From positions 1-10,866 of the IMG/VR virus record IMGVR_UViG_2579778899_000010: 10,866 bases of DNA; one strand, given 5' to 3'. The notes under the pieces were generated by a model. The model made no database searches. It was not told the DNA's origin and saw only the letters and a program-made list of their open reading frames with translations. Within the stretch, counting starts at the first letter, position 1, and every line of letters begins with the position of its first letter. Below are positions 5,316 to 10,866 of the stretch, in pieces. The position numbers and the translations under genes were made by a program. This DNA comes from a virus. Lineage: Duplodnaviria > Heunggongvirae > Uroviricota > Caudoviricetes.

Positions 5316-5603
5316 TTAATAAACAGCGCGAATATCGATGGTTGCGCCGCAGGCATGAGCATATTTAGCCAAAGTTTTCATACTTGCCCCTAAAGGATTG
5401 CTTTCCAGGCGGCTGATGGCTGACGGTCGCAACCCCATTCGTTCAGCCAGAGCTGATTTCGTTAAACCTGCTCTTTCCCTCATTTCGTATAACATTTCGA
5501 CCATCTCCAGCTCTTTGTCGGCCTCTTCATATCCTTTGACGGCTTCTGGAGTGTTGAGGAGTTTTTCTTTTACTTCGTTAAACGGGATGCCTTTCGCTTT
5601 CAT
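5316..5603 (-). CDS. HTH (XRE-family) antitoxin of a HigA-like type II TA pair (95 aa)
   Basis: Minus-strand ATG at 5603-5601 with SD AAGGAGA 7 nt upstream, overlapping the toxin stop by 1 nt. HTH segment LTKSALAERMGLRPSAISRLESN. Confidence 0.8.
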   Translation of the reverse strand: MKAKGIPFNEVKEKLLNTPEAVKGYEEADKELEMVEMLYEMRERAGLTKSALAERMGLRPSAISRLESNPLGASMKTLAKYAHACGATIDIRAVY

Positions 5604-5914
5604 CAGTTCATCTCCTTCAGGCGAGTTCTGGCGATTTCGATAGCCTTCACCGGTGTTTTCTGTGTCTTTTTTACAAATGCATGCAATAGATAAATTTCGT
5701 TACCAGTCGCGTAGGCGTACAGCGTTCTTGCGATGTTTTTATCCCCTACTCGTAGTTCAAAAAGCCCTCCACCTATTACACGGCTATGGGGCATCTTCAG
5801 TTTGTTGCCTTCCTTCTCCAGTCGCTCAATTAATCTGGTCATGCGACCTCGCAAATCATCTGGTAGTTCAAGCAGTTCATCCAGTGCTGCAGGGTGGGTT
5901 ATCACGTTAAACAT
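5603..5914 (-). CDS. RelE/ParE-superfamily toxin, HigB/Gp49-like (103 aa)
   Basis: Minus-strand ATG at 5914-5912 with GGAGG 7 nt upstream. Product MFNVITHPAALDELLELPDDLRGRMTRLIERL...GGLFELRVGDKNIARTLYAYATGNEIYLLHAFVKKTQKTP matches the RelE-fold Gp49/HigB pattern. Toxin-first order with a coupled HTH antitoxin. Confidence 0.8.
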   Translation of the reverse strand: MFNVITHPAALDELLELPDDLRGRMTRLIERLEKEGNKLKMPHSRVIGGGLFELRVGDKNIARTLYAYATGNEIYLLHAFVKKTQKTPVKAIEIARTRLKEMN

Positions 5915-6314: not shown

Positions 6315-6542
6315 ATGAATATTAATGAAATTCGTGGAAATATGACTGAAGCGGCCCTGAGTGTGGAATGTGTTATGCGTGGATACCCACGCATTTCCCT
6401 GAAAGAGTTAAGCGAAGCCTGTTTTTTGAGTCAAGCTGCCGTTGAATTTATCATCGAACAGATGATCTGTTTTGGGGTTGCAAAGCGTAGCGGGTCTGGT
6501 CGATATTCTTTGACCGATGAATATAAGCAGGCAACTTTCTAA
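6315..6542 (+). CDS. Hypothetical small protein with possible winged-helix DNA-binding fold (75 aa)
   Basis: SD GAGAGG before ATG 6315. Segment RISLKELSEACFLSQAAVEFIIEQMICFGVAKRSGSGRYSLT is wHTH-like. The stop lies 5 nt before palindrome copy 2. Confidence 0.5.
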   Translation: MNINEIRGNMTEAALSVECVMRGYPRISLKELSEACFLSQAAVEFIIEQMICFGVAKRSGSGRYSLTDEYKQATF

Positions 6543-6547
6543 AAACT

Positions 6548-6565
6548 GTGCGACCACGGTCGCAC
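6548..6565. repeat. Palindrome copy 2: GTGCGACC-AC-GGTCGCAC (central dinucleotide inverted relative to the other three; flanking T/A extend it to 20 bp, 6547-6566)
   Basis: Read directly. Immediately after the stop of the 6315..6542 gene and about 85 bp upstream of the intrinsic terminator. Confidence 0.9.
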
Positions 6566-6650
6566 AGCACAAAAACGAAAAAGCTTGGCAAAATTACGGT
6601 TTTTAGTTATTGTTTTGTTAAGTTGGGTTTTTTGTACCCAACATCCAACA

Positions 6651-6676
6651 AGCCGCCTTTATGGCGGTTTTTTTGT
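6651..6676 (+). terminator. Rho-independent terminator (hairpin AGCCGCC / GGCGGTT with 5-nt loop, then a T7 run)
   Basis: Sequence AGCCGCCTTTATGGCGGTTTTTTTGT: GC-rich stem plus a run of seven T, located between the small-gene pair and the methyltransferase. Confidence 0.6.
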
Positions 6677-6764
6677 GCCTGAAAAGTGGGCGCAGGACAA
6701 GTTGCAGCTTGTCCTGCGGTCAACCCATGCCAGAGCTATAGGCTGAACCTAAAGCCCACCCGCG

Positions 6765-8817: not shown

Positions 8818-9208
8818 TCATTACCGTGATAACGCCATCGCCTACAAGGAGCAGCGCGACAAAAACGCCAGAGAGCTGAAGCTGGCGAACGCCACTATCA
8901 AAGACTTGCAGATCCGCCAGCGTGATGCAGCGGCGCTGGATGCCAAATACACGAAGGACTTAGCTGATGCCAAAAAGCAGCTTGATGATTTGCAGCGTTG
9001 TGTTCGCACTGGCAAGTGTGGGCTGCACCTCAACGCCAGATGTTCCGCGAACGGAGCGACCAGCACCGGCGGCCTGGGCGATGTTACCGGCCCCCGACTT
9101 ACTGACTCCGCTGAACGGGATTATTTCACCCTCAGAGAGCGAATCGTCACAGTGACGAAACAGGTTGGATATTTGCAGGAGTACATCAGGACGCAATGCC
9201 TGAATTAA
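8747..9208 (+). CDS. Rz: Rz i-spanin (153 aa)
   Basis: [49 protein letters not shown]... closely matches phage lambda Rz as I recall it: N-terminal TMD then a coiled-coil periplasmic domain, C-terminus ...YIRTQCLN. Confidence 0.85.
8967..9155 (+). CDS. Rz1: Rz1 o-spanin lipoprotein, nested within Rz in the +1 frame (62 aa)
   Basis: SD AAGGA 8 nt before ATG 8967. Signal peptide with lipobox-like ...ALASVGC, then a proline-rich mature part ending ...[11 protein letters not shown], as in lambda Rz1. Confidence 0.75.
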
Positions 9209-9249
9209 TCCATCTGCATCAAAAACGAACTCAATTTGTTGGATAGTGA

Positions 9250-9561
9250 ATGAAAATTTATATTTCCGGGCCAATGACGGGATATGAGAACTCTAATCGT
9301 GACGCCTTTAATAAAGAGGCAGATCGTTTGTCACGACATGGTCACTCTGTCTTGAATCCAGCCACTTTGCCTAATGGTCTGACACAACGTGAATACATGG
9401 ATATTTGCTTTGCAATGCTTCGTTGTGCTGATGCTATTTTGATGCTTCCTGGCTGGAAAGCGTCTGCTGGAGCAACTGCTGAGTATCATTACGCATACAA
9501 GATGGAGATGCCGGTATTCACTACGCTGAATTACCCGCCAGCTTGTTCCTCTGTAGCATAA
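9250..9561 (+). CDS. Small protein with nucleoside 2-deoxyribosyltransferase-like N-terminus (DUF4406-like), 103 aa
   Basis: MKIYISGPMTGYENSNRDAFNKEADRL... resembles the N-terminal signature of NDT-like/DUF4406 proteins. The family assignment is from memory and unverified. First gene after Rz. Confidence 0.55.
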   Translation: MKIYISGPMTGYENSNRDAFNKEADRLSRHGHSVLNPATLPNGLTQREYMDICFAMLRCADAILMLPGWKASAGATAEYHYAYKMEMPVFTTLNYPPACSSVA

Positions 9562-9580
9562 AAATCTCTTTGTTTCTCGT

Positions 9581-9598
9581 GTGCGACCGTGGTCGCAC
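9581..9598. repeat. Palindrome copy 3: GTGCGACC-GT-GGTCGCAC
   Basis: Read directly. 19 nt after the stop of the 9250..9561 gene, preceded by the boxA-like string TCTCTTTG (9564-9571). Confidence 0.9.
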
Positions 9599-9800
9599 AT
9601 TAAATACCGCGCTGCATCGTCGCCGTATTTCCGCATTAACCATGACCGTAGCCCGACGGGGAACTCCTCTGCGCGAGTGTGCGGAAATAATCAAAAACGA
9701 TGCACACCGGGTTTTTACCGCGCTAATGATTCGCGGGTTTGTCCCTCATGCTCGCCAGTCCTGTGCGAGGGTGGAAGAAACAGGGCATGTATTCAGGAGC

Positions 9801-9818
9801 GTGCGACCGTGGTCGCAC
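9801..9818. repeat. Palindrome copy 4: GTGCGACC-GT-GGTCGCAC
   Basis: Read directly. Exactly 220 bp from copy 3 (start to start), 23 nt upstream of ATG 9842. Confidence 0.9.
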
Positions 9819-9841
9819 GGTATCTTTGTCAGGAGGTTTTG

Positions 9842-10702
9842 ATGAAAGAGTTGCAAAAAATTAATTCAATAATGGAAAGATTAAGTGCTCTTGAGCGTAA
9901 GCTGGACGATTGTGGAAAGCTGTGTGTTGAAAAGCAAAATGAGCTTTACCGGGAATTTTTTACAATCGTAAGTGAGCTGATGCCAATTGTTAATAACTGC
10001 CTGATGACATCCAGATTTTTTAATGTCGATGCTACTACATCCAGAAAATTTTCTGTGAAAATTCAAGAAAGAGTTTCTGGTAGTGTGACAAGAGAGATGG
10101 CTGAACAGTTGGTGGCAATGAGCAATAAAACAAAAAGAAAAAAGGCATTGCTTGTAACAGCAAATCAGCTTTCAGGGCGCGTTGACTTTCAGGTCAGACA
10201 GGGTGGGCGTGTACTGGTAAATGATGCGTTCGTTGGACGTAGCTTTAGTCCTTACTCGATAAAATATGATGTTGATGCAGATGATCAGGATATCAGCATT
10301 TCCTGGAAATCTGAGACAGCAGGAATTGTATTAACAGCAGAGTTGTTGAGTGATGATAAAAATGATGTCCAGCATCATTTGGACGAAAAGAATCATATTT
10401 CTGAAATTTGTATGAAGCCACGCAGCGGAATGACTTTATTGTCACGCACTCTTGCTGCTGGCTTTTCTGCACCGGAAAAACGTGTGCTTCTGGTAGTGCC
10501 TGAAGATGCAGATATTCGACCACTGAATGGCTGTGATGTTATTAGTGCAAAAACATTGCATACCCGCGTCATTCCTGTACCGGATGTGGTCATTATTGAT
10601 GATGTTGAGAAATGCAAGTCTGTTTCCTCAACTGCCACAATCAAGCGAATTTTACGTTGTAGCACGTCGGCTGTTGTATTCCGGAAGCAGTTACATAACT
10701 AA
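9842..10702 (+). CDS. Hypothetical protein, 286 aa, AT-rich moron gene of unknown function
   Basis: Strong SD AGGAGG (9831-9836) before ATG 9842. Long clean ORF with no hydrophobic helices noticed and no recognisable motifs. The track's 9581 start is a GTG inside palindrome copy 3. Confidence 0.7.
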   Translation: MKELQKINSIMERLSALERKLDDCGKLCVEKQNELYREFFTIVSELMPIVNNCLMTSRFFNVDATTSRKFSVKIQERVSGSVTREMAEQLVAMSNKTKRKKALLVTANQLSGRVDFQVRQGGRVLVNDAFVGRSFSPYSIKYDVDADDQDISISWKSETAGIVLTAELLSDDKNDVQHHLDEKNHISEICMKPRSGMTLLSRTLAAGFSAPEKRVLLVVPEDADIRPLNGCDVISAKTLHTRVIPVPDVVIIDDVEKCKSVSSTATIKRILRCSTSAVVFRKQLHN

Positions 10703-10825
10703 CCAGTTTTGTTTTGCAGAACATCCTCAACTAAAAGCTTATAGAAAGAGAGCCTGAGATATTTTTTCTGTCTCTCGTAGTTGTTTATTTTTCTCGAACA
10801 GGCTTACAACTTACAGGATATAAAC

Positions 10826-10866
10826 ATGCAAGAAGAAGCAAATAAAATTCTTGTTGATTTATTGAA
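10826..10866 (+). CDS. 5' end of an unknown gene (MQEEANKILVDLL...), truncated by the window end
   Basis: ATG at 10826 preceded by ACAGGATA. Only 13 codons are visible. Confidence 0.3.
   Translation, partial: MQEEANKILVDLL

Follow-up and report, generated by a model that had tools for sequence, protein, structure and literature searches.

Two palindromes 220 bp apart in an N15-like plasmid-prophage are most likely SopB centromere sites

We analysed a stretch of viral DNA of 10,866 nt (the window), in which two identical palindromes bracket a short non-coding segment. We put the probability at roughly 85% that SopB binds these palindromes, IR4a and IR4b, as N15-type IR centromere sites of an N15-like linear plasmid-prophage. 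As copies of a known SopB docking site they are most likely centromere sites, which would help the inheritance of the prophage at cell division rather than serve as a gene switch or as part of a small-RNA locus. The first-pass annotation had noted the two identical palindromes, and this observation is confirmed: the 18-mer GTGCGACCGTGGTCGCAC is present without mismatch at both 9581-9598 and 9801-9818, at a start-to-start distance of 220 bp. The interpretation that it had offered is, on the other hand, largely replaced by a known explanation. The features of the window that are used in the following are listed here.

418-1128: Q antiterminator (PF06323)
1061-1381: Lar-like ORF (match to phrog_6795)
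1338-1355, no strand: IR2-equivalent, a putative site downstream of Q and within the end of the Lar-like ORF
6548-6565, no strand: IR3-equivalent, a putative site 19 bp upstream of the late-promoter -35 element
6585-6613, plus strand: late promoter, assigned by homology to N15 (-35 TTGGCA at 6585-6590, -10 TATTGT at 6608-6613) and followed by terminator hairpins
9250-9561, plus strand: DUF4406 gene, counterpart of N15 gp57 (PF14359, E = 2.7e-34), the last conserved late-region gene before IR4a
9565-9572, plus strand: boxA-like TCTCTTTG, 8 nt before the third palindrome copy (IR4a), a chance resemblance
9581-9598, no strand: IR4a, putative N15-type SopB site, GTGCGACC-GT-GGTCGCAC, exact, 19 bp past the DUF4406 stop codon
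9609-9797, plus strand: non-coding copy of the pre-cos segment (from BLAST within locus L001)
9677-9716, plus strand: GTGTGC...GCACAC repeat followed by CGGGTTTTT, not credible as a terminator
9801-9818, no strand: IR4b, putative N15-type SopB site, exact, 23 bp 5' of the ATG at 9842
9842-10702, plus strand: AT-rich moron ORF of 286 aa, with an SD sequence AGGAGG at 9831-9836; phrog_2571 (unknown function)

The pattern GTGCGACC-NN-GGTCGCAC occurs four times in the window, starting at 1338, 6548, 9581 and 9801. In the copy at 6548-6565 the central dinucleotide is reversed, GT reading AC. The 16-bp core of the palindrome, TGCGACC-NN-GGTCGCA, lies inside an 18-bp inverted repeat. When up to 3 mismatches were allowed, 8 strand-matches were observed in the 10.9-kb window against 0.01 expected, and this number was equalled in 0 of 200 shuffles.

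A full-text search for the palindrome half-sites led to a study in which the natural centromere sites of N15, IR1-IR4, were used to build an artificial N15 centromere (PMC7205306, Table 4). IR2 is given there as ..AAAGAGG GTGCGACCTCGGTCGCAC GAGATAATGAA, IR3 as ..CTGATATC GTGCGACCATGGTCGCAC GGAATAGAAA and IR4 as ..CCGCTTTC GTGCGACCACGGTCGCAC GCTTTTCC (PMC7205306, Table 4). The half-sites of the window, GTGCGACC and GGTCGCAC, are identical to those of all three. Binding of SopB to the N15 sites, and SopAB-dependent stabilisation or incompatibility, are established (PMC7205306 and references therein), and F SopB is non-functional with these sites (PMC7205306). The centromere repeats of N15 and F differ by 1 nucleotide per half-site, and the specificity of N15 SopB is carried by residues 179-200, in the HTH (PMC2910045).

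The last 1.7 kb of the window (9202-10866) is 99.6% identical to Escherichia phage PhiR46_1 (PV340565), and positions 9540-9860 have a 100% match on an E. coli plasmid record. PhiR46_1 has annotated telL and telR ends, a 633-aa protein that is 76% identical to the N15 protelomerase TelN, a 1331-aa primase/RepA, a cI-type repressor, and ParA/ParB at 43667-45822, adjoining telR. Because of these features we class it, from its sequence, as an N15-like telomere phage-plasmid. Its ParB is 74% identical to N15 SopB, matches the structure of the DNA-binding domain of F SopB (3mky, E = 6e-39) and also matches NCBIfam PRK13698. Within the 22-residue HTH specificity region, the recognition helix of this ParB differs from that of N15 SopB at 5 positions, and its specificity is for this reason deduced from the co-occurring sites. 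The sopAB genes of the prophage under study lie outside the window and are taken from PhiR46_1 as its near-identical relative.

The gene order of the window parallels N15 genes 39 to 57: Q, a toxin-antitoxin pair, counterparts of gp50 and gp51, the late promoter with its terminators, a DNA methylase, holin, lysozyme, Rz and finally the DUF4406 gene, whose domain is also found in N15 gene 57. In N15, we located IR2 at 35930, after the Q-like gene 40, and IR3 at 41124, where gene 51 ends 5 bp earlier and the annotated late -35 follows 20 bp later. IR4, located at 45561 and flanked by genes 58 and 59, is entered in the record as a putative rho-independent terminator. The IR1 site of N15 is inside repA (1 mismatch), and the IR1-equivalent site of PhiR46_1 is likewise in repA. 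The flanks of the window copy at 1338 are homologous to the flanks of N15 IR2. The region around the copy at 6548 gives an 86% alignment to the N15 region of IR3, late promoter and terminator; late -35 and -10 elements are annotated in the N15 record at the homologous place, and Rfam at permissive thresholds returned two weak terminator-like hairpin matches in the window (6603-6734). The sites in repA (IR1), after Q (IR2) and ahead of the late promoter (IR3) are positionally homologous to their N15 counterparts. Copies 3 and 4 make up the IR4 region; like N15 IR4 they follow the lysis and DUF4406 genes, but their flanks differ from those of N15 IR4.

As the IR4 region is doubled and an IR1-equivalent is present in repA, this phage has five predicted sites (IR1, IR2, IR3, IR4a and IR4b) compared to four in N15. 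It shares with N15 the half-sites, the free central dinucleotide, the dispersal of the sites, their homologous positions and the presence of SopA/SopB, TelN and RepA in the same genome. However, N15 has a single IR4, whereas here the IR4-region site is doubled, 220 bp apart, around what appears to be a captured pre-cos fragment. In the F plasmid, sopC consists of 10-12 tandem repeats of 43 bp, each with a 16-bp inverted repeat, TGGGACC-NN-GGTCCCA. The likeness lies in the same ParB type Ia and in an inverted repeat that differs by 1 base per half-site (PMC2910045). The sites of sopC, however, form one array by sopAB with a 43-bp period, while in the present prophage they lie kilobases apart except for the 220-bp pair. 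With this reading, the unannotated repeats of this phage gain a known function; the phage record has no feature for them, and in the N15 record IR4 stands as a putative terminator. In place of the four sites of N15, this relative has five predicted ones, two of which form a close pair; the type of site itself is known from N15.

Our view of the mechanism is drawn from the established Sop (type Ia ParABS) systems of N15 and F, and the present analysis contributes the sequence identity with experimentally defined SopB sites, the cognate sopAB and the positional homology. SopB dimers would recognise the two 8-bp half-sites through the helix-turn-helix, nucleate at the IRs and spread or bridge to form a partition complex, on which the SopA ATPase would work so that a prophage copy is secured for each daughter cell. 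CTP-dependent loading and spreading are among the properties described for ParB of the F plasmid. In the present prophage the loading points would be scattered, with IR1 in repA, IR2 after Q, IR3 upstream of the late promoter and IR4a/IR4b after the lysis cassette. In N15 a single IR is reportedly sufficient, and Sop is said to help late expression. IR4a and IR4b, 220 bp apart, would offer two adjacent loading points for which helical phasing is unnecessary. The doubling of IR4 would most simply be a by-product of recombination, by which a 220-bp piece (one IR plus the pre-cos fragment) entered the ancestral IR4; in that case selection probably acts on IR4b, with IR4a as a redundant, additional loading point.

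Some transcriptional by-effects may also be expected. On the artificial N15 array, N15 SopB formed foci and a weak promoter ~50 bp away was silenced (PMC7205306). By analogy with this silencing, side effects of SopB occupancy on transcription are plausible here: SopB could silence weak promoters nearby or modulate late transcription crossing the sites, and late transcription from 6585-6613 would have to cross both IR4 sites to reach cos and the head genes.

We scanned viral contigs for the motif and found it in at least 119 DNA stretches, with ~160 instances in ~40 flank contexts. The central NN was variable (GT, AC, AT, TC and GC). The half-sites were nearly always GTGCGACC / GGTCGCAC, an invariance tested at three degenerate positions only, since the pattern of the scan fixed 13 of the 16 half-site bases. 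A variable centre and variable flanks around fixed half-sites would fit recognition by a protein dimer. A scan of genome contigs for the 16 specified bases gave mostly single chance matches in GC-rich genomes, and the relevant-looking matches in it were limited to a 46-kb Pseudocitrobacter contig (two sites) and one Escherichia contig.

The first-pass annotation had proposed that a tetramerising regulator uses the two palindromes as operators and loops the 220 bp between them, so as to control the gene at 9842 or a small RNA. We consider this very improbable. It is true that symmetric palindromes suit a dimer, that IR4b lies 23 bp from the downstream ATG, and that 220 bp corresponds to 20.95 helical turns. 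Silencing by N15 SopB on the IR array, as described above, also makes some regulation conceivable (PMC7205306). However, the palindromes share their half-sites with known SopB centromere sites and form part of a set that is spread over the genome at positions homologous to those of N15. What lies between them is a duplicated piece of pre-cos DNA, which the related locus L120 lacks, and in 8 of 14 relatives IR4a has decayed. The near-integral spacing holds as a number, but by simple arithmetic ~29% of random spacings would lie no more than 1 bp from an integral number of turns, and a conserved phasing is contradicted by a spacing of 221 bp in the related locus L082 and by the lack of the whole unit in L120. 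We know of no requirement for helical phasing in ParB-type spreading and bridging.

The region 9562-9841 was also inspected for signals that such a control region would carry. A consensus scan, which weak promoters could escape, revealed no sigma-70-like promoter in 9562-9841, and Rfam at permissive thresholds gave no match there at E <= 1. Neither an own promoter nor a convincing terminator, as expected of a small-RNA locus, was found in 9562-9841 by the consensus scan and shuffled folds. With SopB-type sites, no promoter-like site and no Rfam match in this region, and a segment that is absent from L120, the description of it as a dedicated control region or small-RNA locus is not supported. 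Of the proposal that the palindromes are regulator sites, the part concerning protein-binding sites is retained on sequence grounds, and a protein of this kind can bridge DNA and silence promoters; the part concerning a tetramerising regulator dedicated to the 9842 gene is not. The arrangement resembles looping between lambda OL and OR in having symmetric sites on the same DNA and a bound protein able to bridge them. It differs in that there is no associated promoter, the sites are not by the immunity region, they match the site of a partition protein, and their spacing is not independently conserved. We take this as a warning that dispersed palindromes in lambdoid-looking DNA may be partition sites of a plasmid-prophage, not operators.

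The GC content between copies 3 and 4 is 0.51-0.54 compared to 0.375-0.43 in the downstream gene, in agreement with the earlier description of a GC-rich segment upstream of an AT-rich moron. The 286-aa moron ORF has no match in Pfam, PADLOC or NCBIfam, and the same three resources suggested no function for the downstream moron proteins.

The 190 bp between IR4a and IR4b proved, by sequence comparison, to be non-coding DNA that duplicates the pre-cos sequence of the same phage. BLAST within L001 placed the segment at 9908-10096 and its second copy at 11691-11862 of this locus. PhiR46_1 also has the segment twice, once between the IRs and once, without an IR, directly upstream of cosQ/cosN and Nu1; the second copy is 92% identical and lies ~40 bp upstream of cosQ/cosN. 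The segment is widespread: at 85-96% identity, 3181 of 5426 complete E. coli genomes and 261 phage records contain it, usually in the interval from the lysis cassette to cos, just upstream of cosQ/cosN. The distance from its end to the cohesive end is ~75-130 bp in mEp460 and 2B8, and in lambda 107 bp of it are left, between bor and p78, 1.5 kb from cos. The IR-flanked copy is 96-98% identical to the copies of other phages, against 92% to the pre-cos copy of the same genome.

We consider the segment to be non-coding because its homologues carry single-base indels, some have lost the ATG, and variable sites are evenly spread over the three codon positions (26/28/25). Its candidate peptides had no Pfam or PHROG match. 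On these grounds we do not regard the 99-aa, 66-aa and minus-strand ORFs as coding, and the earlier statement that no genuine ORF lies between the copies was supported. A link to YlcI/YnfO was also dismissed, as this annotation belongs to a neighbouring gene that merely abuts the segment end in DLP12-like prophages. A literature search with pieces of the segment sequence returned no match.

Could the 190-bp segment itself be a functional structured RNA or DNA element, acting in packaging near cos or in late-transcript processing, with the IRs merely flanking it? The wide occurrence of the segment just upstream of cosQ/cosN would be in line with this. In the plus-strand consensus fold, 98.9% of cells were paired compared to 97.1 +/- 0.2 in shuffles, three pairs changed on both sides and 19 cells had two-sided changes against 5.5 expected, although such measures are inflated by related sequences according to the tool's own warning. 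The alifold covariance term was, however, unfavourable (+1.6), and the count of double-change pairs was not above that of shuffles (284/500). The single-sequence fold was not significant (z = -1.6), and there was no Rfam match. The segment is also less conserved within genome pairs (83-95%) than the flanking pre-cos DNA and Nu1 (92-100%), and lambda keeps just the 107 bp distant from cos. We thus rate a function of this kind as improbable.

Next to be considered is how the doubling arose. Among 14 related loci, which were retrieved by an exact-IR pattern so that the counts are biased, IR4b is exact in all 14, while IR4a is intact in 6 of them and deviates at one position in another 6 and at two positions in the remaining 2. 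Locus L120 has DUF4406, a single IR, the 149-aa moron and downstream genes, without the 220-bp unit and without the 286-aa moron. The window type has DUF4406, IR4a, segment, IR4b, 286-aa moron, 149-aa moron, the pre-cos region with the second segment copy, and cos. In L095, L112 and L016 a third IR follows the second segment copy and precedes cos; in L008 the 286-aa moron is truncated. The 220-bp unit consists of IR4a, 10 bp and the segment. The right flank of IR4b, GGTATCTTTGTC, resembles that of the single IR of L120, GATATCGTTGTC, and from this resemblance we take the unit to be a likely insertion at an ancestral IR4, which in this lineage is probably represented by IR4b. The pre-cos segment was probably captured through recombination at an IR, so that the 220 bp would be the length of an insertion and not a designed phasing.

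The spacing itself had been put forward earlier as something to compare across homologues. The relatives that keep it at 220 bp are all near-identical (98-100% across the unit), and in L082 it is 221 bp. Since all of the two-site loci are 98-100% identical, the exact spacing receives no independent support.

These comparisons also bear on the view that the two sites serve no joint function, IR4a and the acquired segment being neutral passengers of a recombination event that are now decaying, and the IRs being short homologies used for module exchange between N15-like and lambdoid phages. We give this view somewhat less than an even chance; as an account of the doubling, a recombination scar is well supported by the sequence comparisons. 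The IRs coincide with homology breakpoints, and the homology of other phages to the window ends at or beside IRs. The flanks are joined to several partners (4 for the segment-side flank, 4 for the late-promoter-side flank of IR3 and 2 for the DUF4406-side flank), and the series from L120 through the window to L095/L112 differs by IR-bounded blocks. The 1-2 mismatches of IR4a in 8 of 14 relatives, beside an IR4b that is intact in all, and the closeness of the IR-flanked segment to the copies of other phages point in the same direction. On the other hand, IR4a is a perfect site in the window, the sampling by the exact-IR pattern biases the counts, and the scar is compatible with the partition reading rather than an alternative to it, as an intact IR4a would still bind SopB. 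Apart from this, IRs were seen to flank moron insertions and to sit at mosaic breakpoints.

We also examined the region for RNA-level signals. Each of the palindrome copies can form a GC-rich hairpin of 7-10 bp (-11.5 to -16.8 kcal/mol, z = -2.2 to -5.2), and the MFE structure of 9562-9841 pairs IR4a with IR4b (z = -2.7). The terminator scan flagged IR4b, which has the T-rich tail GTATCTTTGT. IR4a is followed by ATTAAATACC and so fails as a rho-independent terminator.

The palindromes might then also, or instead, act as hairpins in the late transcript, as weak terminators, 3'-end stabilisers or RNase III targets, and the two copies could pair into a duplex of 18-20 bp enclosing the segment. 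We regard this as unlikely. The stable stems, the pairing of the two copies and a symmetric double change in phage 2B8, GTGCAACC..GGTTGCAC, speak in its favour, and the terminator call for IR4 in the N15 record, together with the T-rich tail of IR4b, leaves room for an RNA-level role. However, IR4a, IR2 and IR3 have no T-run on the plus strand. Across many contexts the stem is essentially invariant and does not covary, a pattern that suits protein recognition better than a hairpin alone. In another IR context, changes in the extended stem were near-random (~17 perfect versus 9 mismatched, by hand count), and the single-sided variants L064 and L011 are present. Apparent covariation in the extended stems (acgct/agcgt versus actct/agagt) was discarded, as it looks like two flank haplotypes recombining at the IR. 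The partition reading remains the one we prefer for these sites.

Two further signals had been pointed out in the first-pass annotation. The GTGTGC...GCACAC repeat is present, with GTGTGC at 9677-9682, GCACAC at 9702-9707 and CGGGTTTTT at 9708-9716, all within the pre-cos segment. Its hairpin is no better than chance (z = -0.73 against shuffles) and received no call in the terminator scan, and it was rejected as a terminator. The boxA-like TCTCTTTG is also present, 8 nt upstream of copy 3, and is absent from the other three palindrome copies. It has 3 mismatches to YGCTCTTTA; 83 sites in the window have at most 2 mismatches (62.6 +/- 7.3 expected from shuffles), so that it is a weaker match than 83 others and no better than chance. 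A T-rich boxA-like octamer 8 nt upstream of a hairpin-forming palindrome does recall a lambdoid nut site, but here the hairpin lacks a GNRA-like boxB loop, and the phage has an antiterminator of the Q type, with no N gene seen. As 83 sites of the window match better and the antiterminator is Q-type, a boxA/nut reading was rejected.

A more speculative proposal, which we hold to be doubtful, is that the N15-type IR is also a portable junction element for the exchange of modules between N15-like and integrated lambdoid prophages and for the capture of morons. If so, the orphan cos-side IRs in chromosomal prophages, including the symmetric double variant of 2B8, would be kept for a reason of their own. 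They could form a late-transcript hairpin, or serve as a handle by which the SopB of a resident plasmid-prophage binds, silences or interferes with other prophages or incoming phage DNA. The doubled IR around the pre-cos fragment would then be a snapshot of the exchange process. The side observations of this study bear on the exchange of DNA between plasmid-prophages and integrated prophages, and on the action of partition proteins on foreign prophages.

The palindrome is also found beyond plasmid-prophages. Phage 2B8, which encodes an integrase, O/P, N and Q but lacks ParB, carries GTGCAACCGTGGTTGCAC ~75 bp before cosN. As the palindrome occurs in integrated lambdoid prophages that lack ParB, the sequence can persist without a partition role. 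The arrangement of segment, IR and proximal cos was present at >=80% coverage in 155 of 5426 E. coli genomes (~3% of complete genomes), and 1293 of the 1309 places matched by the segment-IR-cos query were chromosomal.

Several further observations concern the inverted repeats (IRs), the 18-bp palindromes carrying the half-sites of the N15 centromere and predicted to bind SopB, and other parts of the window and its relatives. The features are as follows.

Predicted SopB-binding repeats and associated features
1338-1355, window: IR2-equivalent site, within the 3' end of an ORF (1061-1381) for a Lar-like restriction-alleviation protein (phrog_6795)
5316-5914, window, minus strand: two overlapping ORFs of 95 and 103 aa
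6548-6613, window: IR3-equivalent predicted SopB site and late promoter
9609-9797, window, and 11691-11862, PhiR46_1 locus: two copies of the pre-cos segment, ~190 bp, non-coding
9842-10702, window: 286-aa moron protein (phrog_2571)
11125-11574, PhiR46_1 locus: 149-aa moron protein (phrog_3054)
11656-11832, PhiR46_1 locus, minus strand: 58-aa reverse ORF of the moron block
2693-2710, phage 2B8 locus (LR595859 48654-48671): orphan IR

Considering all IR instances in L001-L125, we observed that homology breakpoints fall at the IRs and that one flank type can pair across the repeat with up to four partner flanks (four for the segment side, four for the late-promoter side of IR3 and two for the DUF4406 side). 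These two observations together suggest that the 18-bp site is a recombination junction between phage modules.

The moron block, comprising the 286-, 149- and 58-aa ORFs, is AT-rich and is bracketed by the two copies of the pre-cos segment. Its genes are variably present, absent or truncated among close relatives; the 286-aa gene is absent from the related locus L120, and in L008 it is truncated and the 149-aa gene is absent. The block proteins had no match in Pfam, PADLOC or NCBIfam. The IR-flanked pre-cos copy is 96-98% identical to the copies of other phages, compared to 92% to the second copy in its own genome. In the plus-strand consensus fold of this segment a few pairs are changed on two sides, but the case for a structured RNA is weak.

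The ORF for a 75-aa winged-helix-like protein (phrog_331, 6315-6542) stops 5 bp before the IR3-equivalent site. The -35 element of the late promoter (TTGGCA, 6585-6590) follows 19 bp downstream of the site, as in N15, where IR3 is likewise just upstream of this element. This close coupling of a partition site to the Q-dependent late promoter is 86% conserved relative to N15. At the IR2-equivalent site the half-sites are unchanged in relatives, while the flanking codons are variable.

N15-type palindromes were also present as orphans in integrated lambdoid prophages without ParB (2B8, L005 and E. coli genome matches). The IR of phage 2B8 is a symmetric variant, GTGCAACCGTGGTTGCAC, ~75 bp upstream of cosN; this phage has integrase, O/P, N and Q genes, and ParB is absent. 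The order pre-cos segment, IR, cos-proximal was found in 155 of 5426 complete E. coli genomes, and 1293 of the 1309 places matching this query are chromosomal.

In the N15 reference record (NC_001901), the stem-loop at IR4 (45560-45584) carries the label 'putative rho-indep. transcription terminator' and no mention of SopB binding; the PhiR46_1 record has no annotated IR. The minus-strand 95- and 103-aa ORFs occupy the same position as the RelE/ParE-type toxin-antitoxin pair of N15 (genes 48/49), and would add another plasmid-maintenance module to the window.
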